A DNA stretch of 64,000 nt from Picochlorum sp. SENEW3 (Eukaryota). The translations under genes and the position numbers were made by a program. Location: positions 1-64,000 of the forward strand of contig CP120458.1 in the NCBI GenBank assembly GCA_034226945.1, given 5' to 3'. A model generated the notes under the pieces. It did not search any database. It had not been told where the DNA came from and saw only the letters and a list, made by a program, of their open reading frames with translations. Below are positions 14,238-57,770 of this stretch, one piece after another. Positions within the stretch are counted from its first letter, which is position 1. Each line of letters opens with the position of its first letter.

Positions 14238-14238
14238 T

Positions 14239-17639: not shown

Positions 17640-17885
17640 AAACCCATACCAGAGACAATGTCCACTCTTCTCGCTTTGCACATACATTGATATTATATAA
17701 ATACATCTACACAAAAACGCGCAGGACTGGACATTGTCTTTGACACCACCAAACACGCGCTGGAAGCTCGGTCATACTCACCACCGGTGTGGCCACTTCA
17801 ACCCGCCGAATGACCATGCCAGAGACAATGTCCACTCTTCTCGCTTTGCACATACAATGATATTATATAAATACATCTATACACG
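17640..17885. repeat. ~1.5 monomers of the 170-bp satellite C
   Basis: agagacaatgtccact at 17651 and 17821; same family as 37908-38880. Confidence 0.9.
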
Positions 17886-19970
17886 AATGCTGGAGCAACT
17901 ATCTCAGTATCATCAGTATGCATGGCACGTTGTCTTACTTAGACTACATGTGATGCAATGGGCATAGTAGGATATATAAAAATACAATTGCGACGATTCT
18001 TTGGGGAAGATCTCGTCGTGTTGAAAGACTGCTCCACAGCTCTGTCCTCCTCCACCTGTGTGTGCTCCACATATCCAGGCGCTCCCATCAGAAGGGGTCT
18101 TCCATCGGAGGAGTAGTAGGAGAGGAAGAACAACAACGAAAAAAGAAACTACCATCATATCCCCGGTCAAATTTCCCTTGTGATGGGAGATGAAAAAAAT
18201 CACGCTGAGTGTAGCCGAACGGGTGCCTTAGAGCCGGCTCTAATACCATGGTCGCGCTTTTTTATTGTCTTCATTTACGGAGGGACACGCCGGAAAAAGA
18301 AAGAAAAAAGGCCGGCGTCATCCCACTGTCCCTGCTGTATAAATGCACCATCTGGCACCTTGCATAGTTTTTCTTTGGACACATAGAACACTTGGTAGTA
18401 GCACCACAGATGTGACCCGAAACAGAAAACGCACTCAGCCATCTTTTTGCTGACTACGCATCATGTGGCCTCGGTGACCCCACACCCTTGCCACTCACTG
18501 GCAGTGCATAGCAGCATTGGTTGTTGGCATTGGATGATTGGACAAATATAACAATATTGAAGGCCATTTCAGTCGGTGCCGAGTCGAATGGATCTCACCG
18601 ACCGACGTTGGTCCATTCCGATCGCGTCGCGACGGTTGGGACGAAGACGCCCAGAATATTCCTCCATGGACATGAAGGAGCATCATTCTTGATTTAAAAT
18701 TATTTATCAGTCGAAAGAGCCGACGATTGACCACCACGGAGCACAAGAGGGGTCCAACAACAACCGTTCCACGGGAATGTCAGGACGACAACAATCACAA
18801 CGGTGCCAATAAGCCACGACCTCTTGTCCTAGTGGTTCCTACCCTCTATCTTATATTGATATATATGTATCCCTTCAACAATCAAACTCACAAAGTTTGC
18901 TTTGCCCAGAGGTTGTTGTGAATTCTGTTGGGACGCGAACTACTCCTGATGCTGGCGAGCGGGGAAGCTCTTTACACTGCTAGTTCCTTCTCATCAAGTC
19001 CATATGGATGCCTAAACTCGGCAGGCCACGGGCGAAAGCTCTCAACCTTCGAGTCTGAGGCAACTGCTTGTGCTTTGACTCCTGGCCCATTACAAAAACA
19101 TGCGGTGACTAAGGTTGGTCATCGCCACCCAAATGCCCGATCTGGCAGTTCGCACGGTTTCTGTGGATACATGAAAGACTCAACAGCGCCACGGACGCGG
19201 CGAAACAAGACTCAGCCGACCAGCAGCGCGTGATTCGTGACTCCATTGGGACATGCGGTGACCAAGGTTTGTGGTCGCCCCCCAAATGCCCGATCTGGCA
19301 GTTCGCACGGTTTCTGTGGATACATGAAAGACTCAACAGCGCCACGGACGCGGCGAAACAAGACTCAGTCGACCAGCAGCGCGTGATTCGTGACTCCATT
19401 GGGACATGCGGTGACCAAGGTTTGTGGTCGCCCCCCAAATGCCCGATCTGGCAGTTCGCACGGTTTCTGTGGATACATGAAAGACTCAACAGCGCCACGG
19501 ACCCGGCGAAACAGAGCTCAGTCGACCAGCAGCGCGTGATTCCTGACTCCATTGGGACATGCGGTGACCAAGGTTTGTGGTCGCCCCCCAAATGCCCGAT
19601 CTGGCAGTTCGCACGGTTTCTGTGGATACATGAAAGACTCAACAGCGCCACGGACGCGGCGAAACAAGACTCAGTCGACCAGCAGCGCGTGATTCGTGAC
19701 TCAATTGGGACATGCGGTGACCAAGGTTTGTGGTCGCCCCCCAAATGCCCGATCTGGCAGTTCGCACGGTTTCTTTGGATACATGAAAGACTCAACAGCG
19801 CCACGGACCCGGCGAAACAGAGCTCAGTCGACCAGCAGCGCGTGATTTCTAATCCCAATTATCCCTTATCCCTTTTTAGCCAGTCCTGGTGACCGGTCAG
19901 AGGGGTGCCTGGACCGGACCTATTAGTCGACTAATTTCTCGAGGGGAGCCACCGGGCAGAAACCCAGTAG
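17881..19970 (+). repeat. Unit X copy ending at ...CCCAGTAG
   Basis: Collinear with 47093-47318 plus 50353-51772 and with 36096-37246. Confidence 0.9.
19099..19848. repeat. 153-bp tandem repeat B (5 copies), subterminal in unit X
   Basis: acatgcggtgac recurs at about 19099, 19251, 19404, 19557 and 19710. Confidence 0.95.
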
Positions 19971-28647: not shown

Positions 28648-28956
28648 TATTTAGGGCAGGTCAACAATTCAAGGATTAACGAATTTTTGCTAGATCATAT
28701 GTGCTAATGAACTCATCTTGAAGTTTTGGCTCTGTACATTTGTCACGCCCTATACAATCGGTTGGAAGGATACGATGCCCTCACAATCGATTGATATTGA
28801 CTTGCAAGTCAATTGATATCAAGTTAACATGTGATGATCACAACTGCTGGTTGGATTTCTTTCTCAGCCCTTCGCCCATGAGATCCCTGCTGCAGCGGTC
28901 TACATTTGTGCTAGATTTCCCAGTCCGAGCATTTTCAAGACCTTCTCTCAATGCAC

Positions 28957-29430
28957 CTGTGTGAGCATGGTTTTGTGTATGCATCCTTCATCATCAAACA
29001 AGCAGAAGGGAGGAAAGAACCATTTGCATTCATGACACAATATCTCAGAAAAGCCCCGGAATACGTCATTTACGACAATGCATGCAACTTGCAGGACTAT
29101 TGCTTGAGCAGGGCACCATTGTTCTTCATGCACACCAAATTCTTCGTGGATGGCTTCCATTGGAGGAACCACAAAGCATGCAGTCTTGGATATATGATTA
29201 ATGGGTACGAAGACAAGTGGTTACAGGCGTTAAACACGCAAGTTGCAGAGCAGAACAACTCATCCTTGAAGAACCTGAAGGCCATGATGAGCAGAATGTC
29301 ACAGAAATCGTTCATGACGCTCCTGAAGTCATTCATGTGTCATTGGAGTTACCACAAGCTAAAACGAATGAATACCAAGCAGAAAAGAAAGCAGAGGAGG
29401 AACGGTTGGCCGTCCTCAGGTGCTATGTGA
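28957..29430 (+). pseudogene. KDZ-type transposase C-terminus (copy 1, 5'-truncated)
   Basis: CEHG.VYASFII..AEGR.EPF, YDNACNL, VDGFHW.NH..CS and NTQVAEQ.N motifs; closely similar to 34061-34523. Confidence 0.88.
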
Positions 29431-30684
29431 AGGTTCTGGCTGGCAGGACAAAGCATCAGTTCTGTCAACAGACCACTCTTGGCCTCCATCCCCTGACACG
29501 GCCTCGCCCTGGCCTTCAACAACCTCCTCACCACAGCAATAGCGTCGATAGAACTTGTCAAGCATCGACTGCAGGAGGAGGAGCCTTGCTGTGGTCTGCT
29601 GCTGCCTGCAGTTGTGCTGGGCAAACTTGGTAAGGACGTGCTCAACATCTGCATACGGAATGAAACAGAATTCCTGGTTCGGCTTATTCCTCATGATTAT
29701 TTTTTTTGATGTAAGTTCATCGACGGCCACATCTGTGAGTTTCGATACCAGTACTGCCTTTGGCAACACAAACTTGTTTGTCTTCTGTGTATGGTTCCCA
29801 AAAGTCTTCACAGCCGGGTCACCAAACGCTTTCCTCAGACACCGTTGCAGATCGTATTGCAGTACACAGAATCCATTCGAGATTCGACGTCCATATTTGT
29901 CCATCACTGCGTGTTCTCACACCTTGATGTTGAAGAGATGGATGGTTTGGTCCACTGTGGCCCTGTCCCCATCACGTTGCTGCAACATGAACTCTAACCC
30001 TTTCGTGCTGACAGCATTAGCTTGCTCTGTCCCCGCTACTGACGTCCCGTAGAAACTGCATATCTCAATGTGGTGGAGCAAGCTCCCCGATGCTTCGTCC
30101 ATGGCTGGCTCGTCCACTCCAACTGCAGGGGTGTGGTCAACCGCTTCTGCCTCCTCTGCAACAAAGGATCCAAGGATGCACTGTTGCAGGTACCGGGTCT
30201 TCTCTTGCCATGCATCGATTGCATGTTGCGATGTGATGACCAAGGGCGAAGCCAGCTCGACCACCTTTTGGGCATGGGCCCTGTTCCTGGACAACTCACC
30301 CTCTAGCTGTGCTACTTGAGCCTGCAGGGAGGCACACCTTGACCTCTCTTCTTCGTGCATTCCCTCCATCTTTCTGCTCTTCTCATACCACACCTTGACG
30401 TCACTATACAGGGCAGTGATGAGCTCCGGAAACCCTTCAGGAAGGCTATTTTTAGCCAAAATTTGGCCATTTTCCAGTCTTGGGTACTTCCTGGGAAGCT
30501 CCTCTTCCCGAGGTTTGAAAAATTTTCTCGGCGGTGCCGCCTTGTTTGCGCGACATGTATCATTATTATTATTCACTATATCTACATCGATTTCTTGGGT
30601 ATGATTCGAATACGCGCGATCGGTGCCGCCGATCTCACGCGCAGGCACATCGTCCGCACTCGCATTCGGGGCAAAAGTTGGCAT
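29416..30684 (-). pseudogene. KDZ partner gene copy 1 (one in-frame TGA at 29917-29919)
   Basis: ORFs 29917-30684 and 29416-29907 are in the same frame; homologous to 34583-35800 (YPRLENG/YPLLEKG, DKYGRRISNG/DKHKRRISPG, KAVLVSKL/KAVLISKL, PNQEF/PNQEY). Confidence 0.88.
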
Positions 30685-31275
30685 GAAATCCCTTGTTTTT
30701 CGCCTCTTTGTGGCTCAAAATCCCTGCAACTTTGATACTTTATATATGAAAAGCGGCAGTATTGCGCGAATTGCACACAAAAGCGCAATATGCTTGAGAA
30801 ACAAGGACAATCGCACGTGCGTTTGAGCACTATTCAAACTGTCCTGGCATTGTCAGCCAAACGATTTAACATGTATTCAAACATACACTGTTGCAATATC
30901 ATGTACAACAAATATATATACACTACATACTATCACTTCCTTTTTTCTATGTTTTTATTCCACAGGCCGGCCGTGATAACCGTAGGGACGGCCCCCTTTG
31001 AAGGGGACCAAATCCGGCCAAGTCAAAAAAATTGAATGCACCCCAAACCTTCGCTCCGGCAATTCCAATTCATATATTATGTTTAAATAAGTCATTTTGG
31101 CGGCAGTCATGGGTCGGTCAACCCGTGGCCGAGTCAACCTTGGCACATTTCCCGAGATGGTTGAGTTTGAGAGGGGCCGAAAACGTAGCCAGAGGTGGGT
31201 ATGGTGGTTCTCCCCCGTGTTGAATGGAATTAAATTCAAATTTCAGCGGCATTCTGTCGGAGTACAGCCCGAATC

Positions 31276-34200
31276 ATGCGCTGTAGAGGCGGAACTCGAT
31301 GTTGTGTTTCAACCTGGGCTGACTTTTGCACCATGTTTTTGGCTCTGTGCAGCGAATTGGAGGCTATTCAGAGCGACATGCTCGCCATATGTGATCATAT
31401 AGGCGATTTGGTGGGTAGTTTTGGAGCCACATCGGCGTTCATGGCGTGGATTGGGCCTGACTTGTCCCTGCATATGGTGAGGACTGGCAACATTCATGCC
31501 TCTGAAAACAGTGACTTCTGGCCCATGTTGACTGAATCGTTCAGGTCTGAATGCAACAAGGTATCTGGTATGAGCACCTGCGTGCTGAATGCGAGGTTGG
31601 TTCGCCTTCTATTGTTCCAGGGGTGCAGTCCTAATGCTGCTGTGGTCAAGGCCGGATGGAACAGCAAGAAGACGTGTATACAGAAGAGGATGGAGCGAGT
31701 GAGGGGACTAACAGAGTCTCCTGTATACATCTCAGTGTCTGGAAAGTATGGCTTCACGTGGAAGCATCCCCAAGGCTCCACAGAGCTCGACAGGCTGGAT
31801 GACTTTTTCCACCACCACTCCATGGGGATGAAGTTCAGGGCCATGAGCGGCTTGCCAGGACCCGTTTCCCCGCAGATCAAGCGACGCAAAGCCCCTGAGA
31901 ATCGAAGAGCCCCTAACTATTCGAGGAAACGATTGAAGACGTGGGATGGGGAGCCTTTGTTGAGGCCAGGATCTCTGGAGTGGTATGAAGACCAGTTGAG
32001 GAATCCTCTGGTTGTTCCTGTGCAGCCCTTGTGCAGGCACGAGCGTGCACCCGGCTGTCATTCACTATCTTGGGCATGTGTGGACTCCAGAGCATACGGT
32101 AGGCTTGGGGAGACCTTGCATCACGGGCTGCTAGTCAAGGTTACTTGCCCAGACAGCAGGGGGGTGGACCTGGAATGCACCTGTGACACTTTTACAGCTG
32201 GCACGCGAGAGAACGGTGACTGTGTGCATGTACAATATATTTCCAAGGACCTAGAGACCTTCAAAAAGTGTAGGTTTGGGAGAGCGTGCGATGTGTTTCA
32301 AATCCAGTTGAAGAACAAAGAATGTGTGGGGTACTACCATGACAATGCCTTTGTCAAGCTAGACACAGTAGGCTGGCGATGCAGCCTGTGTCGAGACTGT
32401 CGCAGATGTAGACATGTGCGTACGATGAACGGAGTGGACCAAGAGAGCGCTGTCGCGCTCTTGGAGAACCAGGGCATGGCAGAGCCTGACCTTGTTCCAT
32501 CCCCACCTCCAGGCACATTGGACTGGTACCTGGAAACTCAGCCTGAGGAGGAGCAGATTACCACGCCGCTGCGTGAAGATATTAGGGAGTCTATACAAAG
32601 GATTCATCACGCCGGACTCGCGGCGTGGACGCATCCCAAGCCAGGTGGCAGGCATTTTCCTGCCCTCACAGGTGAGGCCACCAAAGCCCAGGAACCTCTG
32701 CCATTGCCAGCAGGAGTACGATGAGGTCACGGGCCTCCAACTCGACTATCAATCTGTTCGAGTATTTTTGAATCCTTCAAGATATGACTGCATCCACGAA
32801 AGGCCCGTGTATCGATGGGTGTGCCCAAATAGGAAGCCTGAATGCACTGTTCCCTACACTGGGGTGCATGATGGTCTCTGGAGAGTGTCTTCCACGATGG
32901 TGGTGGAGCTGCAGATGATGTATGATGCCTATAACTCTGCCCTGCTGTTGGGTGCGCAGTCGTTGGAGAGTCAGTGCGATGAGCGCAGGAAGTACCATGG
33001 GAGTTTTGTGTTTGACAGTGAGGGGTGCCCCAGACTGGATGAATCTGTTCAGCCATTCATGGATGCCACCATGTTTCGAAACGCTGCGATACAATTCGGG
33101 AAGAGAACATCCTGGAAGATGGTATGGAGGACTGGACACGAAGAGCGGGCCCTTGATAACCCCATGATGTGCCCATGCTGCATGGACTCCCCCAGGGTGC
33201 TGATCATGGATGGGACGTCCATGAGCATCCGGTCCAAGGGATGCTTCGCTCAAAGCATCACCAAATCAGATGATACTGGAAAAGAGGTCCCCAAAAGGTG
33301 GGGAAAGAGACAGAGGGCGTTCGTGAATGTGGTGGCAGGAGTGAGGACAAAGCAACACAGGGCAGAGCCGGTGAGATTGCTGGATCAGTTCCAAAAGTGG
33401 ATCCGAAGCCTCGGAGAGCCTTCAACAGAGTCCCCAATGTTTACCAAGAGATCTAGACTACTTGAATTGGGTAGGGCATGGAGCTTGGACTCATTCCTGA
33501 AGTGGGCACACACCAATGCAAGAGCATGGTCCGCTCAACCGAAACGGTTGGCCCTGGCAGACTTCGTGCGCTGCCTCGCGAGCGAATCCCCGGTGGTGTC
33601 GTATATCTCAATGAAGACTGTATCCCATATAAAAGAATGGGCAGAGGATGGCTCGCGGATCTCGAGTGGGGTGATGCAGGACATGATGAAACACTCCCCA
33701 TACCTGTGCAAATTGCTACAGACAGTGAGCCACTCACAGGGGCACGTCCGAGTTCCCCCCGAGTGGAAACCCCTGCTGACGGAATTGTTTACGAGAATAG
33801 AGCATGTCACTACATTTTCTAGCGGGTATAGCCTGGAGAGGGAGCTTGGGAGTGGTGTGGAGGAGGACCAGGAGAACCAGGTGCCTGTACTGGATGGGTC
33901 ATACCTGCAAACGGGCATACTGACTGGCCTTCCTCGCCTTCGGCGAAAACCACAGTACTCGGCCGACAAAAGTAGAGAGGATGAGAAGAAAGAGGGGTCG
34001 GATAAGTGCGATCATGCGTTCTACAAGCCAGGTGACAGAACAGGAGGGGTGTTCACCATCCTGTGTGAGCATGGGTTTGTATATGCCTCGTTCATCATCA
34101 AAGAAGCAGAGGGGAGGAACGAACCGTTTACATTCATGACATGTTATCTTGAAAAAGGCTCCAGAGTACGTGATCTACGACAATGCATGCAATTTGCAGG

Positions 34201-34523
34201 ACTATTGCTTGAGCAGAGCTCCCCTGTTCTTCATGCACACCAAATTCTTCGTGGATGCGTTCCATTGGGTCAACCATAAGGCGTGCAGCCTTGGATATAG
34301 CATCAAATCGCACGAAGACTCGTGGCTCAAGCTCATCAACACCCAAGTAGCTGAGCAGAACAATGCAGCCCTGAAGAACCTCAAGTCCATGATGTCCAGG
34401 ATGTCTCAGAAGTCGTTCATGACGCTCCTCAAGTCGTTCATGTGCTATTGGAACTTTCGAAAACTAGAAAAGCTGAATGCAGAGGAGGAGAGGAGGCGGA
34501 GACGGAACGGGCTCCATTCCTGA
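31276..34523 (+). CDS. KDZ (Kyakuja-Dileera-Zisupton)-type transposase with SWIM-like and Cys clusters; two frameshifts; true start uncertain
   Basis: CTC..F...DCVH and CSLC...RCRH fingers; CPCC.DSP.VLIMDGT; CDH.F.K.G.RTGG; CEHG; EGR; YDNAC; VDAFHW.NH; EQ.N. Spread over ORFs 31276-32724, 32492-34279 and 34149-34523. Confidence 0.85.
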
Positions 34524-34582
34524 GGGCAAGGATGCTGCCCAGTGCATGAGCTCATGGGGGGTTGCCATGCTGGCCTGCTCTC

Positions 34583-35800
34583 TCATGCCCCCGAGGAGCA
34601 AGAGCCCGCTTTCTCGACAACATAATGCCCACGAGGATATTCAATCTGGTTTGCTTGCCCCGCTCTCGTGAGATCGCGGAAGAGGTGCAGGAGACGGTCC
34701 AGCCTCTCCCTGGTACTCTTCCCTGCACAGTGCTTCTCTCGAAATGCCTCCACCACCATGCTCGCATCAACCAAGGGCACAAAGCTGTATTCCTGATTTG
34801 GACGGCCTTCGTCAGATACAATGCCTTTGCTTCGAAGTGTTTGTATGACCTCTGGGAGCAGTTTGGAGATCAGGACGGCTTTGCTCACAGAAAATTTGCA
34901 CTGGGATGTCTTTGTGAAATTCCCAAAGTTAGAGATCTTCTTATTGACCGTGCTCTGTAATAATTCACTCAATTCATGCTGCAAAACGTAATACCCAGGA
35001 GAAATCCGCCGCTTGTGCTTATCCAAGAGATGTTGCCCCCCTGTCTGTACACAGTATACATGGATCACATGCTCAAACACTCTCTGTTCGCCATCTAGTG
35101 CTCTTTCGAAGCCGCTCGGCGTTCCTTCGATCCAAAGGCTGTCGTACATTGATTCCGAATCCCCTTCGATGGCTTGGGATGGAAGGGGCTCCCTTGCTGG
35201 AGGGTTGAGGGCAGGGTCTGCCCCTTCGCTTGCAGCCTCCAACTCCCCATGCCCACCATACTCTCTCAGTATGTTCATGTACCCTGCTATCTGCGATTGC
35301 GCATCTTGGCACTTACTCACCATGTTGGTAAAGTCTCTCAAGAATGGAGCAGAGTCTTGAACAACCGTGTCGACTAGCTCCCTCATGTTGCTCAACTTGC
35401 CTTGCAACTCGCTCACTGTCCCCTCCAGCTCACCCACCTTGGTGCCCAAAACTGCACATTCATCCCGTGCATTGGAGGCTTCCCGACGCCAGTGGGTGTA
35501 ATCTACGTAGAGAGACATGATAAGACCATGCACCTGGTCATCGACCTTTACTCTGGAGCTCAATTCCCCCTTTTCCAGCAATGGGTACCTTTGGGCAGGC
35601 TCCTCGAAGCGCTTTTTGAAAAGTTTGCCAACCGGTCCGCGCGGTTTGTTCGCCGCTTTGGATTTTTCTAATAAATTTGCATTGTTTTCGGCGATGTCAC
35701 TGTCATATCCGCTGCAATTCGCTGAAGAAATCTCGCCCTCCGGAAGGAGCCCATTTGAAACATCCAAGTCGTTTGCGGCTCGCTTGGTACGTCGAGGCAT
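34583..35800 (-). CDS. KDZ partner protein copy 2 (405 aa; coiled coil plus conserved C-terminal domain, function unknown)
   Basis: Intact ATG-started ORF; heptad-like segment LGTKVGELEGTVSELQGKLSNM; two paralogs in the window. Confidence 0.88.
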   Translation of the reverse strand: MPRRTKRAANDLDVSNGLLPEGEISSANCSGYDSDIAENNANLLEKSKAANKPRGPVGKLFKKRFEEPAQRYPLLEKGELSSRVKVDDQVHGLIMSLYVDYTHWRREASNARDECAVLGTKVGELEGTVSELQGKLSNMRELVDTVVQDSAPFLRDFTNMVSKCQDAQSQIAGYMNILREYGGHGELEAASEGADPALNPPAREPLPSQAIEGDSESMYDSLWIEGTPSGFERALDGEQRVFEHVIHVYCVQTGGQHLLDKHKRRISPGYYVLQHELSELLQSTVNKKISNFGNFTKTSQCKFSVSKAVLISKLLPEVIQTLRSKGIVSDEGRPNQEYSFVPLVDASMVVEAFREKHCAGKSTRERLDRLLHLFRDLTRAGQANQIEYPRGHYVVEKAGSCSSGA

Positions 35801-36095
35801 GTTGCGTCCTTAGTATTCTTTTATTGTATTTATAAATTACAACGGGATCCACCACGTCCAATTAGATCCACTACAGACCGAACCAAGTCGCATTCACTCA
35901 CAGGACATGCCCCGAGGCGACTTTACTCTTGCTATGCAATGAAGTCGATTTTACCGCCGCTCAAATTTAAGATTTTCGAATTTTACGTATGCTCGGTGCA
36001 ATAGCAAGAGCATATGATACACACAGACATATATATAAGCCCCCTAACTTTTCTTATTTTTATACAAGCAGGGTTCTCTTTTATTACATCATCTC

Positions 36096-37246
36096 CATCA
36101 CGACGACATCCTCGTCAAACCTCCCTTGTGATGCGAGATAAAAAAAGGCACGCTGAGAAAGGCCGAGCGGTGAGAGCTGGCCCATGGTCATCCTTTTTTA
36201 TTGTCCTCATTTACGGACGGACACGCCTGAGATTCCTCAGGCTGAGAAAAAGGTCGCCTTCATCAATGTCCCTGCTATATAAATGGACCATTTGGCACCT
36301 TCCATAGTTTCTTTGGATACATACATAGAACACTTGGTAGCGGCACCGCCGATGTGACCCTAAACAGAAAACGCACTCAGCCTGGCTGCTCGTCACGAGT
36401 GTGCCCGAGCGGTCTCATGGTCGTCCTTTTTTATTGTCCTCATTGACGGATCCGTCCGGACGAACACGCCTGAAAAAGAAAAAAGGCCGACGTTATCCCA
36501 CTGTCCCTGCTGTATACTGTATAAATGCACCATTTGGCACCTTCCATAGTTTCTTTGGATACATTCAACACTTGGTGGTAACACTGCAGATGTGACCCTA
36601 AACAGAAAACAACGCACTCAGCCACCTTCTTGCACACAAGGAATCATGTGGCCTCGGTGATCCCACACCCTTGCCACTCACCGGCAGTGCATAGCAGTAT
36701 TGGTTGTTGGTATTGGATGATTGGACAAATATAACATTATTAATGGCCATTTCAGTCGGTGCCGAGTCGAATGGATCTCACGAACCGACGTTGGTCCATT
36801 CCGATCGCGTCGCGACGGTTGGGACGAAGACGCCCAGAATATTCCTCCATGGACATGAAGGAGCATCATTCTTGATTTAAATTAGATATCAGTCGAAAGA
36901 GCCGATGACTGACCACCCCGGAGCACAAGAGGGTTACAACAACAGCCGTTCCACGGGAATGTCATGACAACACTCGCAACGGTGCCAACAGGCCACGAAC
37001 TCTTGTCCTAGTGGCTCCCACCCTCTATCTTATGTTAATATATAGTTCTCCCTCCAGCAATCAAAGTCACACGCGTTGCTTTGTTCAGAGGTTGTTGCGA
37101 ATTCTGTTGTGAACGTTGGTGAATGCGACGCGAACTCGCCTACTGCTGCTGGCAAGGGATGATGGGAAAGCTCTTTGCACCGCTAGTTCTTCTCATGAAG
37201 TCCATACGAGATGCCTAAAGTCGGCAAACCACGGGTAAAAGCTCTC
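36096..37246 (+). repeat. Partial unit X body with an internal ~230-bp duplication
   Basis: Aligns with 18150-19045. It breaks at ...aaaagctctca and joins inverted satellite A. Confidence 0.88.
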
Positions 37247-37257
37247 AGCCTTCCTGT

Positions 37258-37690
37258 CTGGGACATGTCCGAATTGGACACTTTGTGCAGAGCTGCAGGC
37301 TCATCATCCCATCAAAGACCCCATCCATCCCCTCCATAGGTATCGTATATGTCTCGAAATGCGGCGAGGATGCCAAGAAGGACCTCACAGGCACTGGATG
37401 ACACTCCGCCTTGGGACATGTGCGAATTGCACACTTTGTGCAAAGCTGCAGGCTCGCCATCGCGTGATAGACCCCATCCATCCCCTCCACAGGTATCGTA
37501 TATGTCTCGAAATGCGGTGAGGAGGACGAGAAGGACCTCATAGGACCTCACAGGCGCTGCAGGACACTCGACTCTTGGACGTGTGCGAATGGAAAAAACT
37601 TTGTGCAGAGCTGCAGCCTCGTCATCGCCCGCTGGACCCCGTCCGCTCCCTCCACAGGGACCGTATATATCTCGAAATGCGGCGAGGATG
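37258..37690 (-). repeat. ~3 diverged, inverted monomers of satellite A
   Basis: Reverse complement matches the array monomer, e.g. ccccatccatcccctccataggtatcgta. Confidence 0.93.
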
Positions 37691-37907
37691 GCGGGGAGGC
37701 GAAACCCCCCCCGGCCAGGTGGCGTTGGGGGGCCCCGACCACCGAAAATACCCTAAGGAGCTCTCGAGGGCCCATTGCCCTAATCGTCTGCCGCGTCCTC
37801 TGAAGTGGATCGAGAGGCCCGGTCGAAAGCCCGGTCGGACCGGAGGGGCGTGACCGCCTCGGCCAGGCCCCCGCGGCCCGCGTGCGAGATGCGACGGACC
37901 CACTCGG

Positions 37908-38880
37908 ATACATCTACACAAAAACGCGCAGGACTGGACATTGTCTTTGACACCCCCAAACACGCGCTACAAGCTCGGTCATACTTACCACCAGGGTGAC
38001 CACTTCACGCCGAATGACCATGCCAGAGACAATGTCCACTCTTCTCGCTTTGCACATACATTATTATACTATAAATACGTCTACACAAAAACGCGCAGGA
38101 CTGGACATTGTCTTTGACACCGCCAAACACGCACCACAAGCTTGGTCATAGTGACAACCAGCTTTAGCACTTCACCCCGCCAAATGACCATGCCAGAGAC
38201 AATGTCCACTCTTCTCGCTTTGCACATACATTGATATGATATAAATACATCTACACAAAAACGCGCAGGACTGGACATTGTCTTTGACACCACCAAATAC
38301 GCCCCACAAGCTTGGTCATACTCACCACCAGTGTGACCACTTCACCCCGCCAAATAACCATGCCAGAGACAATGTCCACTCTTCTCGCTTTGCACATACA
38401 TTGATATCATATAAATACATCTACACAAAAGAGCGCAGGACTGGACATTGTCTTTGACACCCCCAAACACGCGCTACAAGGTCGCTGACACTCACCACCA
38501 AGGTGACCACTTCACCCCGCCGAATGACCATGCCAGAGACAATGTCCACTCCTCTCGCTTTGCACATATATTACTATCATATAAATACATCTACACAAAA
38601 GAGCGCAGGACTGGACATTGTCTTTGACACCCCCAAACACGCCCCACAAGCTCGGTCATACCCTACACCAGGGTGACCACTTCAACACGTCGAATGACCA
38701 TGCCAGAGACAATGTCCACTCTTCTCGCTTTGCACATACATTGATATCATATAAATACGTCTACACAAAAGCGCGCAGGACTGGACATTGTCTTTGACAC
38801 CGCCAAACACCCGCCACAAGCTCACTGACACTCACCACCAGGGTGACCCCCTTCAGCCCCCTGAAAACCAACCTCAGAGA
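37908..38880. repeat. 170-bp tandem satellite C (~5.5 copies)
   Basis: gagacaatgtcc at 38026, 38196, 38366, 38536 and 38706. Confidence 0.96.
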
Positions 38881-40991
38881 CATTTGTTTTTTCTCTACCC
38901 TCTCTCAGATACTACTTATATATGAGTATATATCTGGGCAAACGTGCGGGACTGGACACGTTTTCGTCTGGTAGGTAGAGCACTGCAAAGGATTGGACTA
39001 CTGACAGTCACCTTGTCCCAAGTGGGGGCGCCTTTTTCTCCTTGTGGCGCGCCCAATTTTGTGCCAGTTTTGGACCCCTCTGAAATGGACCCAAAACAAA
39101 ATATTTTTCAGTTCTGACTCGTGTTTGATGCTATTGAAAGGTAAATAAAACATAATATGTGGAGAGACGGAGCACATCGTCAAAAAATCTATACCCTACC
39201 GTGCTTGACACATGGATTTGGGCCATATAAGGAGGGTAATGAGGGCATATTACACCATATTCACCCCACTTCCCACCACACAAACAAAAAATAAACACGA
39301 TTTCTAAATAAAATAATAATAAACTACCCAAAAATAAGAAAATATCACAAAAATCAAAAATAAAGCCAAGAAAAAACACACCCAACAAGACCAAAATACC
39401 CTAACAAAAAAACACACCAACCAAAAAAACACCAAAACAACAAAAATATACAACACAATATCAAGAAGAATTATTATTATTATTATTATAAACACCTACT
39501 ATACTATATATACAACGACAACGACAACGACAACAACAACAAAAGACACGGCACACCACAAGCTCTGCTACTACTGCTGCTCCTCCTCCTACTACTACTA
39601 CTACTACACGAGACAACAACAACAGCAACCAACACAAAAGAAGCAAAGCAAAGCAAAATCAAAAGATAAAAATCTCATTATGGTATGATGATAATGACAC
39701 AACAACAATCTATGCTATGCTATGCTATGCATGAATGAAAAGAATCTCTGTCCTTTTTCACAACAGCAACAACAGCAACACAAGGACACAATATCAAGTG
39801 AGTAAAGTAAGTAAGAAGAATACCAATAAAAAAACAATAATAATAACCATCATACAAAAAAAAAACGTCGCACACCCAGGACAAAACGAACAGGTCTGGT
39901 GGGACTGTCTGAAGAAGAAGAGGGAGCATCTCGGACCAACAAGAAGAATGGCGATTTTCCCATCACCATTCCTGGACTTGGCTGACTTCACTGGGAACCA
40001 CCACAAAAATACCAACCAAACCAATCAAGAAAAGGGTGTTGTATGGTAAAAAAAACACTCATCAAAGCAAACGTCGCACACCACCTGAAACAAGAACTCC
40101 TCCTGGGACACCACACACGACAAGCTCTACTACTACTGTTACTTCTACTGCTACTGCTACGAGTGCTGCTACAACACGAGACAACAGAACAACAAAGCAA
40201 AGCAAAGCAATCAAAAGAAGATACTATCTCACACCAGTTACTACTAGTTAGAGAAATAGTAATAATGATAATAACATGCACAACAATCGATATGAGCAAG
40301 CAGCCAATAATAACAGGACGAAACACAAATACACACACACAAGAAGAAGATAAGAACCTGGAGATAGACTCACAGACAAGATATGAGATAGAGAGAGGTA
40401 CAATAAGAAGTATGTCAAAAGACATGAGACAAGAAAGAATGAAAAGAGTATTGTCTTTGTTTCACAACAACAACAACAAGAAGCAAGCTGAGGCAAGCAC
40501 TGGAGTGACGTTGCACGAATGCTGGAACAAGTATTTCAATATCATCATCATGCATGGCACATTGTCTTACTTAGACTACATGTGTTGCAATGAGCATAGG
40601 ATAGTATATATACAATTGGGACGATTCTTTGAATGGGAATGGGGAAGACCTTGTGGTGTTGAAAGACTGCTCCACAGCTCTATCCTCTCCATTAGCCCCG
40701 CCCCCTAAGAACCCCCGATCGAGGGGCAATCTTGACTCATCTCATTCGCACTGAATACACAAGTATTGTGCCCACAATTTTGCATACAAACTCAATTTAG
40801 ACTTTAAAGTCATTTTGGCAATCTTCATGCTGCAACACTCACCACGGTGACCTACACCTTGAACGAGAGTTTGAGCATGTCCTATACATGTGCGTTTTGC
40901 TCTCTCATACATTGTTGCAATCTCTACCCATTATGCTATATCGCTATAAACATATATATTCATCTATCTTATCCGCATCTGAGCAATTTCT

Positions 40992-43900
40992 GTGCAGGAA
41001 ATGGCCCTTCCTGTGCACGAGCTGTTCAAAGACAGGGACGTCTGGGAGTTCTGGAGAGAGACTGGGGTGTTTTCAGAAGCCATTCCTCGCATCTGCGACC
41101 ACATAGAGACTTTAATTCTACGCTATGGGGCATTGTATGGCCTGGTGGTGTGGCTGGGGACTGATGGGAAGCTGTATATAGTTGCCAGCGCAAACCTGGG
41201 GCTTGGTTTTACATACATACCCTTGAGGCTTTTGACTCGAAGTCTGAGACCCTACGTAGATGAAATCCCCGGACATAGACGCCATTGGATTCGTGTTGAT
41301 AATTTGAAGAATATATATGGACGAGGGAGCCAGGATAAGGCGGGAAATAGCAAAGGATATCACAACAAGAAGGCTGCTTTCTCCCTGCTGCAGAAGAGGC
41401 TAGCAGAGTCGCAGGACTTGCCTGTGCTGGCTTTAGTATATGCAAACGATAAATATTTGACGCTTTGTCACCCGCAGAAAGACACCGCGATGGAGATGTT
41501 GATGGAGAAGGTGATAAGATACTACCAATCCTTGTCAGATGATGGTTGTATGTCACAAATCAGACCCAATATCTCGTTTCTGCCGCCCTCTGTGCATGTG
41601 GACAGCAGTCGGAGACCTAGGAGAACATCAAATGTATTGTCGCGTCCGAGCAGGAGGAAGAGGACGTCCAAAACAGGGGAGAACCAGTCTCCAGTGGATG
41701 AATGGGAGGCCATGGAGTTTGTGCATGAACCTGGCTCGCTGCCGTGGTATTGTCACGCGATCAAGGATCCCAACGGCACCGGAGTAGCTGCTTTGATCAA
41801 AACAGACAGCTATTATAAATGGGCGTTCGCGGATGCTCGATGCCATGGGCCTGGGGGCAGTATGAGGGTCCACCACAACTTGCTGGTTGAGGTGGAATCT
41901 GAGCTTGATCCCATGGGCCATTTGCGGTGCTCTTGTGCCGTATTTCGCAATTGTCTGGAGCCCAAAGAATGTGTTCACACGTTGTATACCCGTGTGAACT
42001 CGGAACGCCTGCGCAGTATGGCGTTTTCAAAGGAAGGCGAGGTGGTGACCATCATGAAAAATAACTCCTCCACAGCTGGCTACTACGTGGACGGCTGCTT
42101 CGTCAGGATGCAAGGCGATAGGGGTCTTCGATGCGATTCAGATAAAGCATTTGGATGTCGTCACGTCGCTCGGGTGCGGGAGGCATTGCACTTGGACGTG
42201 GATCCCGAAGAGGAGGAGAGTGAGTCCACACCTGACCCTTCCTGCTCTTCCTCTGATGACGAGGCAGACGTGCTGCCTACGAACGCATGGATATCGGATA
42301 CATCAAAAACATTCAAGATAGAGTATCCTTATAGCGATGCGCTTAAGCGGGCGGTGATGGAACGGCTGCTTTTCAAGAGACAAGGAAGGCACTCCACTTG
42401 GGCCCCTTTAGCCACCCATGCCCGCCTCGACCACGTGCGACTGCGGCCTTCCTTATACAAGGAGAGGATTTAAAGAGACAGATCCTGTGACGGTGTATAT
42501 GAGACCGCCGCACTGCGCCAGGTCGCTTCCCTGCATGGTGTTGAAGTGCCAAAGGGGTGCACCAGAATGCACCCTGCACTATACAGGCTTGGAGGACGGC
42601 CTGTGGCGTGCCTCCAAGACAGTGGCGGTAGAACTGGACCTTTTAGTACGATGTGCAAGAGATTTTGTCGGATTTAGAGGACATTCGCTGACTGCACAGC
42701 GCGACAGCATCAGTGAAATGTATGACATGGTTTCTGACACCATTCCCACTGAGAGTTTCCTAGTGGCCAATGCGTTCCGCAAAGCAGTGTATGGCGTTGC
42801 CAGTTGTCTTCATTTTGATACAAGTGATATATCTAGAAGTATGCGAGAAGAATGTGGCGCTGCAATGCCGCCAAATGCCATGATGTGCCCCATCTGCCAG
42901 GATAGCCCAGATGTGATCATCATGGATGGCACCTCCATGTCTATCAGCGCTTCTCTTTGCAGCGCCGAGTCCTTTACGGCGCGCAAAGGCAATCAAATAA
43001 TCAGAAGACCGCATTTGATGGTCGAGCGGTGCTTTTTCAATGTCAGCAAAGGGTCGAATGAGGTACCAGAAAGACGTGCAGGGCAGAGACGAGAAGTCAT
43101 CAAGCTTGTGCAGGACTTTGAGTCTTGGATCGAGTCGAAGGACACTCCACAGGGATTTGTGGGCATCCATAGACTACGTAGTCTCGCTGATACGTGGAAT
43201 TTGGGCGACTTTGTGGCGTGGGTGCACGAATCGTGCAGAGAGGGGCGGCTGTCTGTGGTGGATAGGAAAGCAGTCAAAGCCTTGCTGCGGGAGTTGCGGA
43301 GCGATAGCCCAACCACGTCATACCTCTCCTACGAGTCTTCTATAGACCTTGATGGCTGCCTGGAGGCGGGGAGGGTGGTGGGACAGGCCGTCATGGACAA
43401 AGTGGGCCCCATCCTCAAGAATTTGCTAAGGATTGTGCAAGCGCCGGCCCAAGAGGGAGCTGTGATCCCCACTGGGTGGGTTTCTTTTCTACGTGAGATC
43501 GTAGAAAGAAGCAGATGGATTTCCGAGATCAGCTGTGGCGAGCGCGAGCTGGGAGATGACATCCCACACCCATGTGAGGCCTCTGCAGTGAATGGGGATT
43601 TCCTCAGGAATGGCGTCTGTTGCGGCCTCCCTCGGCTGCGTTTCCGTCCCCCATACGCATGCGATGGACAGAAAGAAGATTCAAAAGTGAGAAGGACAAA
43701 GCGTCCTGTAAGCATGCGTTCCACAAGCCAGGGAAGAGGACAGGTGGAGTGTTTACGTGCATGTGCCAGCACGGTGTTGCATATGCTTCATTCATCATCA
43801 AAAATGCCGAGGGCCGCGATGAACCTTTCACATTTCTCTTCTGCTATCTCAAGAAAGCTCCGAGGGTCGTGGTATACGATTTCGCGTGCGCATTGATGGA

Positions 43901-44249
43901 TTACTGCCTCAACAGGGCACCAGACTTTTTCAAATTTACTTTGTTTGTTGTGGATGCTTTTCATTGGGTGAATCACGTCGCCTGTGCCAGGAGTTTTTCC
44001 ATTAAATTATAAAGTGAGATGAAGGACATTGCCAGCATGACGCAGAACACGGAGGCGTGCGAGCAAATCAATGCTGCCATGAAGAGGTTCAAACCCGTTC
44101 TTTCCAGGATGGGCCAGCGGCCATTCATCGCCCTGCTACGCCTATTTCTGACACAGTGGAACATCTCAAAGTACCATAAACTCATTCGATACAGCATGGC
44201 GCGCCCAAGGCCGGAGCAGGTGCAGGTACATGCGCCAGATCAGCAGTGA
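40992..44249 (+). pseudogene. KDZ-type transposase copy 3 (two frameshifts, one in-frame TAA at 44010-44012)
   Basis: CSC..F...ECVH; CPICQDSPDVIIMDGT; CKH.F.KPG.RTGG; CQHG; EGR.EPF; YDFAC; VDAFHWVNH; EACEQ.N. Confidence 0.87.
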
Positions 44250-45585
44250 GGGACTGCCGAGTGGCCTGCTGTTTCAGCAGGGTTTTCCGCCGTCCACAGC
44301 GTACCATGGCGCGTTTCGATGCGTCAAATACGTCCCGATTCACTATTTGAGTTGTAACGATGCCAAATCGGTGCAGAACGCGGGGTTGAAAATCGGCTCG
44401 ATGCCGCCATGACCCTCTGAAAGCCTGCTTTTTTGACCGCAGGAATGGCACCCAGCCTTGTCGACCTCCGCCCCGAGCCGCTCTCGCGTCCATATTGGCA
44501 TCTTAAATACTCCAATATGCTTGATTATGAGCCGATGGAGCGTTCGATCGAGTGTAGACCGCCCTGGCTCGCCTTCTTGTGGAGACATGACACGGTTCGG
44601 ACGGCGACGAACCGCACAGCATCATGTGCTCAAGCATCCGATGGTATCTTTTTACACATTTAATTGATGGTTTTAGGCGATATCCGCGACTGTTGAGATC
44701 CCCTGCGCGCAATCGCGCATGGCAAGGAATTCAAATTTCGAGCAGGTCGTTGCGCGGAGCACGGCCGATACGGAGCTCGCGACATAATCTGCGTCGCAAA
44801 TAATGGTCAGTGATATATTTGGATAAAGTATTGAATCCACCCTGCTAGCATATGATAGAGGCCTGGGTGGCGACCCGACTTTTCGATCTGGCATTTGAAT
44901 TCCCTGTCTGCAGCAAGCTCGGGTAAACTCCGGTGTAGGGCATATGGCGAGTCCCCAGGATATAGGGTATATGCATGGTGCGATTTTATGTAGGTCATGT
45001 CGATGTTCAGAGCCTAGGCGGATGAAAACCCGCGCCAGAGGAGCCGGTCTGTCATCATATTTGATTGGCATGAGGAAAAATACCCTATCTGGCACAGGAG
45101 ATTGACGTTGGTCTCCCATCAAACGCGTTTTTCCTGTTCAATGGGAGACGAACGTCAATTTCAGAGCAACCCCGTGGAAGAGAGGGATGGCCAGGCAGGC
45201 TCTCCCTCTCCCATCACAGGACTTCAATGAAGGCTGCCAACTTTCAGGACCAGGATGGCCGCCTTATGGACGCAAATACAAAGTGATTACGGTAGTATAA
45301 TATATATTGATGCGTATAAAAGCCAAATGAATGCTGCGGAGAGGGCAGTGCTGCCGTCCCCGTAAGAAAGTGTGTCATGTGCATGCAAACATCATGCTGC
45401 ATGTGTGGCACAAGGCCCAATTCATGCTCATACAGCGGTTCCAATTAAAATAAGACTTGCACTCCATTCCAATATATTACCACACACATATGATATATAT
45501 TTTCCAGCCTTGTGGCGAGAATGGTCACAACGCATGTGCAAAGCCAACAATGTTGCACTGCTGCAAGTGATCCAAACTATGCAAC

Positions 45586-46806
45586 TTACTGTCCATCCTC
45601 ACCTTGCACAAGCTGCTCAGGCGGCATGTCGATATTCAACGCTTCTTCCTCTTGATAGGTATTAATAGTTTGTAGATGAGACAATAGTGTATCCAGCGCC
45701 TGTTCATGAGATGTCACAACAGCTGCATCTTTGCCTTTCTTCCTGAGTTGCCCCTTCAGGGTGCTAATGATGTCATCAAGGTTTGATACCGACACGAAAG
45801 ACACACCTTTCGATGCATTTTGGCATGCATATCTTTTGTGATCGAGCAACCACTCCTCCTCGCCCTGGCTGGCATCACTCAATGCCCATGTTGCATGCTC
45901 CACATCGCTCCTGTGCAGGTTGAAGTCTAGGCTTGGCCTCCTCACCAGCGAGTTGGTGTCCCGCTTCTTGTTCCAGCTCGGGAGAAGGCGATTAAGAATC
46001 TCAATCAGTTCCTTCTTCAGGTAGTACATCCCGCTTTGTATGGGATTGCCCTTTTGGTCTTGTGTTCCATCTGGAACTGTCACAGAGATCAGGGTGGCAC
46101 AAGCATCTCCACTGCCCCCAATGAACCTCTTCGCAACGCCCAGTTCTATTGAATTATTGATTTCCTCCATTTCTAGCAAGCACTCCTCACCGGCAGCGGG
46201 CGTTGCAGGCGTCACCTGCTGGTGGGGTGCTGGGGATACCCCATCACTGTCATCCCTCATGAATGGCAGAGCAGCCAATGTACCAGCAGCCTCGCTGAAA
46301 TCGACACTGAACTTGCCAAATATTGTAGAAACCATCTGTATATCTTCCATGATCACCTCCAAATTATCCAAGTAGTTCTGCACCACCCCTTTGCCCTCCT
46401 CAACCTGCTGCATCTTGTTTGCAGCCTCCTCTTGGGCCTGCTCCAAAGAGGCCACTCTGGCATCTGCTCGCGCCAGCTTGTCAAACGTAGACTTGTAGTC
46501 GAACAGCAGCTGCCCAAGGAGCTTGTTGCTGAGCTCTGGGCACATCTCCTTGGCATCCAGAGCGCCATTGTGGAGCATCTCATACTGCTGTTCAGGGTTT
46601 TCGGTGCCGGCTTTATAGATGTGGCACCAATCGCGCGTCGTCCACCTTTTCACACCAGAATTTGGTTGATTTATAGATGCTGTATCGCGCGCGTTTTGCT
46701 CCAAGACAGCATCGAATGCGCTGCAAAGTCGCTTCGAAGCTCGACCAACCTCTGGGTCCATTGGCGCATGTCCACGCGACATACCTCTCACAGCGCTAAA
46801 ATCCAA
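45586..46806 (-). CDS. KDZ partner protein copy 3 (~400 aa, divergent)
   Basis: YEMLHNG.L, a coiled coil (ARVASLEQAQEE), DQKGNPIQSGMYYLKKEL and SFVSV align with the other two partners; same convergent position. Confidence 0.8.
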   Translation of the reverse strand: MDFSAVRGMSRGHAPMDPEVGRASKRLCSAFDAVLEQNARDTASINQPNSGVKRWTTRDWCHIYKAGTENPEQQYEMLHNGALDAKEMCPELSNKLLGQLLFDYKSTFDKLARADARVASLEQAQEEAANKMQQVEEGKGVVQNYLDNLEVIMEDIQMVSTIFGKFSVDFSEAAGTLAALPFMRDDSDGVSPAPHQQVTPATPAAGEECLLEMEEINNSIELGVAKRFIGGSGDACATLISVTVPDGTQDQKGNPIQSGMYYLKKELIEILNRLLPSWNKKRDTNSLVRRPSLDFNLHRSDVEHATWALSDASQGEEEWLLDHKRYACQNASKGVSFVSVSNLDDIISTLKGQLRKKGKDAAVVTSHEQALDTLLSHLQTINTYQEEEALNIDMPPEQLVQGEDGQ

Positions 46807-47318
46807 GAAAATCTCTCCAAATTCCCCAACAAACTTTATTAATACTTATAAACGACAACGCGCGATACAAGAAACCACAAAATCGCAGCAAGCTCGCGAC
46901 CCGTTCGAATGGCGTCTCTGAACACCACACACAATTTGATTCAAATTTAATTGCACAGTAGATTAAGCTGCTTCAGTTCATTGCTATGCTGAAATTTCAA
47001 TCAATCAAAATGTGTGTCGGCCACACAAGATTGATGACTTGGACACTATATCCCCTTTGTGTTTTTACACTATTTAGAACATGGGGAATCTCATCCTCTC
47101 CACCTGTGTGTGTGCTCCACATATCCAGGCACTCCCATCAGAAGGAGTCTTCGATAGGAAAGAAACACCAAAAGTGAAACTACCTAACCATTCATCGGTC
47201 AAACGTCTCTTGTGATGGGAGATGAAAAAAGCACGCTGAGTGTGGCCGAGCGGTTTAAAGCGTGTGGGCTGGCCCATGGTCGTTTTTTATTGTCTTCATT
47301 GACGGACACACACTCCCG

Positions 47319-50300: not shown

Positions 50301-50352
50301 TTTAGAGGGAGAAAAGTGCGTAACGTCCCTCCCAGCCTAACGAAGCTATTCC
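47319..50352 (-). mobile_element. Degenerate Mutator-like element (MULE)
   Basis: 9-bp TSD ACACTCCCG (47310-47318 and 50353-50361); GG...CC ends; ~90-bp imperfect TIRs (ttcgttagg..gggagggacgttacgca...). Minus-strand remnants DATTKGTQFSLY and a SWIM-like CTCNCAD among many stops. Confidence 0.9.
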
Positions 50353-54537: not shown

Positions 54538-54975
54538 CCTGCTCTTAGCAGGGAGGAGACAAGATATTTTATCTTGCATTGTTTCATCATGGAGGAATAC
54601 TCTGTTCCAAATGAGGACATTTGGTTTGTTTTTAGCAGGGAGGAATTGTAGCAGAGAGCTATGTCCCTGTGGGAGGAGATCTCTTGTCAACATCTAGGGA
54701 GATGAGATCCCTAGGAGAGATCTGGTCATCATGGTCAATTTCATATACTGAGAAGATGTATTCTCATGTAACAACTTCTAATTCAAACTATCTTGTGAAG
54801 GAAGAGAGAACCCTCTGTACATTGGTTGGTATTCTACTCCATCCTCTTCTATCGAACCTCGCTGCGTGTGAAGGTTGAACGCTCTGTGTTGGCAACGACA
54901 CGAGAGTGTATTGGCAGTACGTTGTGTAACCTGTGAAGGAAATCCAGGCCACGACTGGCAATGTACGCTGCCACA
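51773..54975 (+). mobile_element. 5'-truncated second copy of the Ty3/gypsy element
   Basis: Highly similar to 11364-14567; PPT and 3' LTR at 54647-54975. Confidence 0.96.
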
Positions 54976-57030: not shown

Positions 57031-57324
57031 TATTATTTATAATGATGTAATTGAAGGTTTTGGAGGCCGTAATGGTTGTGTCCACTCGACATGGGGGTGT
57101 GCGGGGACCTTGTCAGAAAGATGCCCTGTTCAAAAGACGTCTGAGACAGTGCGAGAGGTGCGTTTCGGGGCGTTTTCGCCCGTTGGTATCGAACTTAAAA
57201 CTCTTATGGAGTATTTTTAGCTGCTATATGGTCAGTGAGATGGCGGCATCAGGCGGAACGAGTGCCCCAATTCTCAAACCTGGTGCTTTGACCCAGTTTT
57301 ACCTAGCCTTTCTACCCATTCTGC

Positions 57325-57770
57325 AGTGAGGCTGAGGCCATCCATGGGCACATGATGAAAATATCAGACCATATGCGTGATATGGCTTGCGACTATGGGG
57401 CAACCTGCGCTTTGGTGGCGTGGTTGGGGCCTCAGAGGAGCATCTATGTCTCCAGAACAGGCAACATTGGCTACTCAGCTGCCCCCGAAATCTGGGCATC
57501 TGTGCAGCAAACCTTCATGAATTTGCTTCACAAGTCCAAAGGTATAGTACTCACGTGCCCACAATCATATCCCAAGAGTTGCAAAGTGACTCCCAGACAC
57601 ACCCCTCGCTATCTGGTCGGTCGTCGCGAGAATGGCAAATCTGGGAGATGGCATTTGAGATATTATATACACAAGCCTGCTGAAAGTGAGAGACCCGGCG
57701 GAAGACGTCTCACGCGACCAGAAAAGTGACCCCAAGCCAAAAGTTGAGGTTCTGAACAACCCTTTACCAT
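57325..57770 (+). pseudogene. N-terminal fragment of a fourth KDZ-type transposase
   Basis: ISDHMRDMACDYGATCALVAWLGPQRSIYVSRTGNI aligns with ICDHIGDLVGSFGATSAFMAWIGPDLSLHMVRTGNI (copy 2) and ICDHIETLILRYGALYGLVVWLG (copy 3). Confidence 0.8.

Follow-up and report, generated by a model that had tools for sequence, protein, structure and literature searches.

Two Two-Gene Insertions of Probable KDZ-Superfamily Transposons, One Nested in a Third Element, in Picochlorum sp. SENEW3

Results

Genes and Elements at the Locus

We analyzed a stretch of 64,000 nt of Picochlorum sp. SENEW3 (positions 1 to 64,000 of the forward strand of contig CP120458.1, GenBank assembly GCA_034226945.1), hereafter the window, in which two elements, c2 and c3, each carry a transposase gene and a converging accessory gene (gene 2) between short direct repeats. 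Element c2 (5119 bp) occupies 30960..36078 and element c3 (6404 bp) occupies 40689..47092, both on the plus strand. We consider it probable, at roughly 85%, that c2 and c3 represent, in decayed form, two different families of a single lineage of DNA transposons in the KDZ superfamily.

The transposase gene of c2 (31333..34523, plus strand) is 98% identical to an intact relative of 1064 amino acids (aa), P0007, and is broken by frameshifts near 32672 and 34152; by tblastn it is read in three frames (31333-32673, 32672-34159, and 34149-34520). In all four of the public runs compared, c2-type copies carry an additional TC after 32672 and one base fewer at 34152. Because the copies in all four runs differ from the window at both sites, it is the c2 copy of the window that is the frameshifted one. 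The c2 accessory gene (34583..35800, minus strand) is an intact open reading frame (ORF) of approximately 405 aa, with a predicted coiled coil followed by a C-terminal alpha/beta domain. In c3, the transposase gene (41001..44247, plus strand) is degenerate: its reading frame changes twice, near 42400 and near 43700, and is interrupted by a stop codon at 44010-44012. The accessory gene of c3 (45586..46782, minus strand) is an intact ORF.

Directly upstream of c2 lies its host, c1 (28957..30959, plus strand), a 5'-truncated KDZ element of the family represented by the intact metagenome copy L001 and the protein P0008. Element c1 shows 95% DNA identity to L001 3163-5166; its first part (28957-29427) encodes the last 157 residues of the transposase, with 95% identity to P0008 residues 895-1051, and its broken gene 2 lies at 29491-30714 on the minus strand, of which 29491-30588 matches a gene-2 homologue at 28% identity (E 2e-34). 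Other copies of the c1 family, in contigs of the public runs, extend upstream of 28956, and an isolated 5' fragment of the c1/L001 type, 96% identical to L001 162-675 and covering transposase residues 1-65, was observed in the window at 57031..57545 (plus strand). An uninterrupted ORF of 1608 aa (23821-28647), consisting almost entirely of ankyrin repeats, stops approximately 300 bp short of the position at which c1 is truncated.

Although the first-pass annotation spoke of c2 and c3 as copies, their transposases are only 26-31% identical, and protein-level matches between the two elements showed identities of 31% over 451 aa, 26% over 368 aa, and 25% over 131 aa. The DNA that they have in common within the window, as found by BLAST, amounts to 101 nt at 77%. 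Judged by this divergence, c2 and c3 are two different, distantly related families rather than copies of one. It follows that their ends cannot be defined by aligning one to the other within the window, and evidence from outside was needed.

Boundaries and Target Sites

The left junction of c2, TTTTATT|CCACAGG, lies at 30953-30966 and the right junction, GGGTTCTC|TTTTATT, at 36071-36085, such that the element is flanked by target-site duplications at 30953..30959 and 36079..36085, to which no strand applies. For c3, the left junction ATCCTCT|CCATTAG lies at 40682-40695 and the right junction, GGGGAATCTC|ATCCTCT, at 47083-47099, with strandless duplications at 40682..40688, where the exact repeat runs 3 nt into c3, and at 47093..47099. 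All four junctions are at the positions given by the first-pass annotation. Identical 7-mers at the spacings of c2 and c3 occur at 6 of 51174 and 8 of 49889 positions of the window, respectively, a chance level of approximately 1e-4 per position.

To place the boundaries of c2 independently, contigs (Logan) of four public runs were compared with window positions 28400-36400; among 24 rows in the public-run listing, 20 contained at least half of the words sampled (10 studies). Two contigs start at the left end of c2 (X1 record 4 at 30961 and X9 record 28 at 30960), and two others (X1 record 8 and X9 record 32) both end at 36078. In addition, X9 record 27 and one X19 contig pass 30959 straight into ACATCAGGGG... 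with a single TTTTATT, and L001 reads ...GTTTTTATTACATCAGGGGCCTC / ...CTATGTTTTTATTACATCAGGGGCCTC, again with one TTTTATT, followed by ACATCA. The window reads ...GTTTTTATT[c2]TTTTATTACATCA..., with ACATCA directly after the second TTTTATT. The bases beside TTTTATT differ between the two junctions of c2, and in the target TTTTATT is preceded by T and followed by A; thus, the c2 duplication is exactly 7 bp. The possibility that the AT-rich match at c2 was due to chance, raised as a caution when the duplications were first noticed, is contradicted by the contig break points and by the read-through of the host family, which set the c2 boundaries independently.

Element c2 is nested inside the right end of c1, within the subterminal repeat of c1 itself; it occupies a TTTTATT target that lies 14 to 17 nt away from the c1 right tip (14 nt in L001 numbering). 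A remnant of the c1 right end, ACATCATCTC, lies behind c2 at 36086..36095 (plus strand) and is degenerate compared with ACATCAGGGGCCTC of L001; from 36096 onward, the sequence is again homologous to the host repeat. We had considered ACATCATCTC as a third TCTC end, which was dropped, as the sequence differs from GGGGCCTC of L001 and may carry a deletion.

Element c3 landed in a dispersed host repeat. Its left flank (40514-40687) matches 17882-18049 at 83%, and its right flank (47094-47306) matches 18045-18281 at 76% (BLAST). Since both flanks match one continuous stretch, the paralog at 17882..18281 (plus strand) is colinear across the insertion point, which falls at approximately 18045-18049. 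A second uninterrupted paralog at 14835..15106 (plus strand) has the insertion point near 14882 and also matches the right flank of c2 from 36096. Thus, the empty site that had been seen near 18040 was recovered, together with another. At the target, the paralog reads CTCTGTCCTCCTCCACCTGTG and the reconstruction reads CTCTATCCTCTCCACCTGTG; with c2 and c3 excised, the reconstructed empty sites read ...GTTTTTATTACATCA... and ...CTCTATCCTCTCCACCTG.... The exact direct repeat of c3 is 10 bp long (ATCCTCTCCA), the first three bases of c3, CCA, being identical to the three target bases after the duplication. The perfect 7-bp duplications claimed for both elements are therefore established for c2, measured against its empty site, and not for c3, which alone is compatible with 7 to 10 bp; only c2 fixes the length at exactly 7.

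A tandem repeat of approximately 170 bp, with units 88-92% alike, was observed upstream of the c3 target (37908-38882) and at its paralog (17610-17883), which indicates that a larger segment was duplicated. The colinearity of the right flank of c3 with the paralog (18281 to 18285 there) is broken by approximately 3 kb at 47307-50352, possibly another insertion, in which no ORF exceeds 115 aa.

Relatives and Conserved Ends

A scan of metagenome contigs gave five loci, of which L004 holds two elements, L004m and, in inverted orientation, L004u. The ends were compared over six families: c2 (CCACAGGCCGG on the left, CAGGGTTCTC on the right), L001 (CCACAGGCCGG, CAGGGGCCTC), L002 (CCACAAGCCGG, CCGGCTACTC), L004m (CACAGGCCC, ATGGGGTACTC), L004u (CCACCCGCCCC, AGGGGCATCTC), and c3, with CCATTAGCCCC on the left and, on the right, ATGGGGAATCTC (right tip CATGGGGAATCTC). 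The left end of c2 is homologous to those of L001 and L002. Both ends of c2, c3, and L004m were fixed by independent copies. L005 matches L004m at 100% across 6860 bp, and the flanks of the two differ on both sides; the right end of L001 was fixed within one base (L001 vs. X9), and the remaining ends were placed by homology of the terminal motifs. The left tip is CCA in five of the six families (L004m starts with CA), and the right tip is CTC in all six; the general pattern is 5'-CCA(C/T)... for the left tip and ...GGG(G)N1-3CTC-3' for the right tip. The asymmetric CCA...TCTC ends first described for c2 and c3 were thus found again as (C)CA...CTC tips common to six families.

Each element has a transposase of approximately 1050 aa on the plus strand, toward which an accessory gene of approximately 400 aa converges from the minus strand, and this convergent pair was present in all seven elements examined (c1, c2, c3, L001, L002, L004m/L005, and L004u). 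Both genes lie within the duplications, in agreement with the original suggestion that the two-gene cassette moved as a unit.

No relative was found in the viral contig collection that was scanned, and the genome contig collection yielded a single fragment, L006, whose first base lies 24 nt inward of the left end and which gave no junction. This contig belongs to the L002 family and carries a eukaryotic KDZ transposase; it is filed in a genome bin labelled uncultured Mycobacterium, most likely as a binning contaminant.

Subterminal Inverted Repeat

The last 26 nt of each element were reverse-complemented and compared, without gaps, with its first 26 nt, and p values were taken from 2000 shuffles. 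The best diagonal had an offset of -1 in all five elements tested. The repeat was significant in L001 (p 0.001), L004m (p 0.001), and L004u (p 0.0005), where it forms an imperfect inverted repeat of 11-13 nt, and was not significant in c2 (p 0.42) or c3 (p 0.35); in L002, 11 of 14 positions matched by eye. Over the five elements, the combined p was 1e-6 (Fisher), compared with 0.31-1.0 in reverse-not-complement controls. The subterminal motif co-varies between the two ends within each family (GTNATAA types vs. CTA types). In the terminal 200 nt of c2 and c3, the inverted-repeat score was at shuffle level, as was the direct similarity of the two ends. These comparisons indicate that a short inverted repeat in subterminal position is a property of the whole lineage, significant or visible by eye in four of the six families. 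The earlier statement that no terminal inverted repeat (TIR) is present therefore stands for the tips, which are non-complementary, and, in statistical terms, for c2 and c3 themselves, but not for the four families with an imperfect subterminal repeat of 11-14 nt.

Transposase Identity

Membership in the KDZ superfamily was assessed with the Pfam family PF18758 at its curated cut-off of 26.6 bits. The domain was present in six of eight homologues, and all six members of the transposase alignment (A3) scored above the cut-off, as did both L004 elements; among intact relatives, the scores were 35.2 bits for P0007, 36.4 for P0008, 37.2 for P0011 and for L004m, and 27.8 for L004u. The KDZ assignment of the first-pass annotation was thus supported through intact relatives. 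A CxCx12CxH motif, which we take to be the definition of SWIM, is invariant in all six A3 transposases, in which Pfam searches at E up to 10 found no CxC (CxC1, CxC4) or SWIM domain. Atlas neighbours of the transposase carry KDZ, CxC4 (17-31% of members), and "SWIM-type" labels, which we use only as a lead. The acidic residues D628, D951, D976, and E1009 are invariant in A3 and may include the catalytic residues of an RNase-H-like transposase; a sequence search of solved structures with the transposase found no relative.

The Accessory Protein

Relatives of gene 2 are rare: only seven proteins were found at E 0.001 among 1.84 billion representatives. An Atlas search with gene 2 gave nothing at 0.9, Pfam gave no match, and a sequence search of solved structures gave coiled coils only. 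The model of the whole protein (mean predicted local distance difference test, pLDDT, 66) shows a disordered N-terminus, a helix at residues 90-185, and an alpha/beta domain at residues 225-385; with this model, Foldseek found no match at E 0.001 or better, and the VIA structure search was dominated by coiled coils. The C-terminal domain modelled alone reached a pLDDT of 81 and a predicted template modelling score (pTM) of 0.79, and in a fold comparison 4 of 48161 chains matched it at Z of at least 5: Dachshund (1l8r_B, Z 6.1, root-mean-square deviation 3.3, 95/99 residues), the N-terminal domain of baculovirus Orf22 (Z 5.7), a Ski-like protein (3eq5_A, Z 5.6, 94/102 residues), and the DNA-binding domain of Mbp1 (1bm8_A, Z 5.2, 90/99 residues). 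As a lead only, the modelled accessory protein may therefore combine a coiled coil with a Dachshund/APSES-like domain, and it could act as a dimeric DNA-binding partner of the transposase.

Other Features of the Window

A 153-bp tandem satellite, with approximately 48 units that are mostly 99% alike, fills 1-7600, and approximately three diverged units (85%) lie inverted between c2 and c3 (37260-37690, minus strand). A Ty3/gypsy element (8674-14567) has long terminal repeats (LTRs) of 317 nt at 8674-8990 and 14251-14567, a gag-reverse transcriptase region at 9374-12139, and an RNase H-integrase region at 12060-14129; a second pol ORF (51682-54537) with an LTR (54659-54975) and an inverted solo LTR (17075-17391) were also observed. 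The ORF at 61531-62550 has Pfam matches to a MULE transposase and a ZSWIM RNase-H-like domain, and is flanked by two long ORFs without a family (59743-61530 and 62551-63993).

Discussion

Weighing the Evidence

The boundaries, duplications, and empty sites of c2 and c3, together with the conserved gene pair and the conserved tips, are shown by the data. Several observations weigh against the assignment of both elements to one lineage of KDZ two-gene transposons. Both empty sites are paralogous or family-level, and neither is allelic. The window's own broken transposase pieces score 24.4 and 23.5 bits, under the 26.6-bit cut-off. None of the four metagenome copies with testable flanks (L001, L004m, L005, and L004u) shows a flanking repeat of at least 4 nt within 3 nt of its ends, and exchanging the flanks between L004 and L005 still gave no duplication; the fifth copy, L002, has only 2 flank nt. 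When the other copies were aligned and their flanks tabulated, as the first-pass annotation had advised, the tips proved conserved in six families and the duplications were not seen again. A plausible explanation of this lack is short-read assembly across multi-copy repeats, which may have produced chimeric flanks. The fold matches of gene 2 are middling (Z 5.2-6.1), and its C-terminal domain has no Foldseek match at E 0.001 or better, the best being Ski-like (probability 0.80, E 0.086). Three further observations concern the point at which the elements start: the base before CACAGG is A in L004 and C in L005, the next 6860 bp being identical; the X1 contig matches c2 only from 30961, and not at 30960; and the left and right subterminal repeats are offset by -1 in five of five elements, where a start at CA would bring them into register.

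These last three would be accounted for if the elements start with CA rather than CCA and make 8-bp duplications like those of Zisupton, in which case the C at 30960 would be a mutated or a preferred target base. The 8-bp version fits c3 perfectly, as its 10-bp repeat accommodates it, and c2 with one mismatch, both of which had been stated at the outset; moreover, the CxC4 and SWIM-type labels of the Atlas neighbours correspond to the Zisupton architecture according to PMC11588098. At c2, however, the eighth base differs between the junctions (C on the left, A on the right), and the empty target (L001, X9, and X19) has A. In addition, C precedes CA in five of the seven left junctions (c2, c3, L001, L005, and X9), which is above the prediction from flank composition, and Pfam finds neither CxC4 nor SWIM. 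We therefore regard the 8-bp version as quite improbable. Far less credible still is that the flanking repeats arose by chance next to paralogous gene pairs that have diverged and were never mobile as units. It is true that TTTTATT is AT-rich, that a reader could choose the boundaries, that the window alone offers no DNA common to c2 and c3 that defines the ends, and that four testable metagenome copies lack duplications; but the boundaries are set independently by the contig break points, the host-family read-through, and two uninterrupted paralogs, the chance rate is approximately 1e-4 per position, and the tips are conserved over six families. A different question is whether the lineage, instead of moving by simple cut-and-paste to random sites, passes through a form with joined ends (circular, or a dimer in tandem) or targets the ends of KDZ elements already in place. 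One contig (X9 record 28, depth 6) runs from a c2-type right end (36049-36079) through T+AGTAG into the left end from 30960 ("goes back 5120"); right-end-like motifs (GGGG..CTC) stand before two left ends, GGGGAATCCCTC at L001 41-52, 0 nt before the CCACAGG left end, and GGGGATCTC at L004 5587-5597 on the minus strand, 2 nt before the CCACCC left end of L004u; c2 sits next to the right tip of c1; and L004 holds two families head to head, L004u at 436-5584 (minus) and L004m at 5632-12491 (plus), with 45 nt between their left ends. The end-to-end joint, however, is a single contig of depth 6 for which a tandem pair is an equally good explanation, the right-end-like motifs in front of L001 and L004u do not match the right ends of those elements, which argues against self-circles, and none of the contigs checked for start-to-end overlap closes on itself; c3 sits in an unrelated repeat, and the motif before the left ends was noticed post hoc. 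Such a route is therefore doubtful, although end-directed integration or a joined-ends form would explain the head-to-tail junctions in public data. A left-end-like CCACAGCC was also observed approximately 45 nt past the right end of L004u.

Proposed Insertion History

For c2 and c3 as KDZ two-gene transposons, we proposed a history in which the short imperfect repeat that most relatives carry inside the tips would be a putative site for binding by either the transposase or the accessory protein, and in which the elements would move by DDE-type cut-and-paste chemistry. A staggered cut at integration, once repaired, would duplicate 7 bp of the target; c3 would have inserted in this way into the dispersed host repeat, and c2 at TTTTATT near the right tip of the resident c1. 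A broader proposal, which is speculative and on balance unlikely in its full form, is that these elements belong to a two-component KDZ lineage not described before, with a SWIM-motif transposase and an obligatory coiled-coil Dachshund/APSES-like partner, 7-bp duplications, non-complementary tips, and out-of-register subterminal repeats, that integrates at or beside KDZ ends or via joined ends.

The window supplies two insertions resolved to the base together with their empty sites, one KDZ element nested in another, conserved asymmetric tips from six families, and a conserved but rare partner gene. It thereby offers concrete substrates for a transposition assay, namely the ends, the target length, a candidate binding site, and the partner protein, as well as an annotation rule for elements that TIR-based repeat finders would miss. 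Knowledge of how such elements work is unchanged by these findings.

Comparison with Known Systems

KDZ is among the least characterised superfamilies of eukaryotic DNA transposons. A transposase that acts with a DNA-binding partner recognising subterminal sites is found in PIF/Harbinger (with a Myb-like partner) and in CACTA/En-Spm (TnpA). Neither is known to have a sequence or fold relation to the present lineage; there the partner binds DNA, whereas here gene 2 would be a putative DNA-binding partner.

Within KDZ, Zisupton was, according to PMC12730594, the sole member whose ends were well defined before 2025, when complete Kyakuja and Dileera elements were presented there. Kyakuja-1_LB and Kyakuja-2_LB of Laccaria bicolor are like c2 in belonging to KDZ, in their 7-bp duplications, and in having a second gene beside the transposase; they are reported to have CA..TG termini and no TIRs (PMC12730594). 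They differ in that their termini are 5'-CA..TG-3', whereas the right ends here are CTC in six of six families and the left ends CCA or, in L004m, CA, and in that their second gene is a TET/JBP dioxygenase, whereas the one here encodes a coiled-coil protein with a predicted Dachshund/APSES-like domain (PMC12730594). This likeness is one of published features.

Element c3 (6,404 bp) resembles, by description, KDZx1 of Cryptococcus deneoformans, a mobile element of 6,397 bp in which TIRs were reported as undetected and which has two ORFs, one for a protein of unknown function and one for the transposase (PMC11588098). KDZx1, however, has 8-bp duplications and CxC4 and SWIM Pfam domains, compared with 7 bp at c2 and neither domain here (PMC11588098). 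Zisupton of fish shares a KDZ transposase of at least 1000 aa with this lineage (PMC12730594, PMC9297572); it and a Dileera family have 8-bp duplications (PMC12730594), and Zisupton is reported to have TIRs and, in animals, multi-exon genes, whereas c2 shows 7 bp (PMC12730594, PMC9297572). Nematode Zisupton-like elements are described as having TIRs, with duplications not found (PMC9297572). KDZ1, KDZ2, and KDZ3 of Cryptococcus neoformans (Dileera clade) are 9-11 kb long; they likewise encode a KDZ transposase, contain additional ORFs of unknown function, and duplicate their target. What sets them apart is a CxC1 domain, TIRs that measure 139-241 bp, and a duplication length of 8 bp (range 4-8), whereas c2 and c3 have no long TIRs and the A3 transposases match no CxC1 (PMC12810828). 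Taken together, KDZ elements without TIRs and with 7-bp duplications have, according to PMC12730594, already been published; new in the present case are the lineage as such, the tips that characterise it, the partner gene that it carries, and the insertion of one KDZ element in another.

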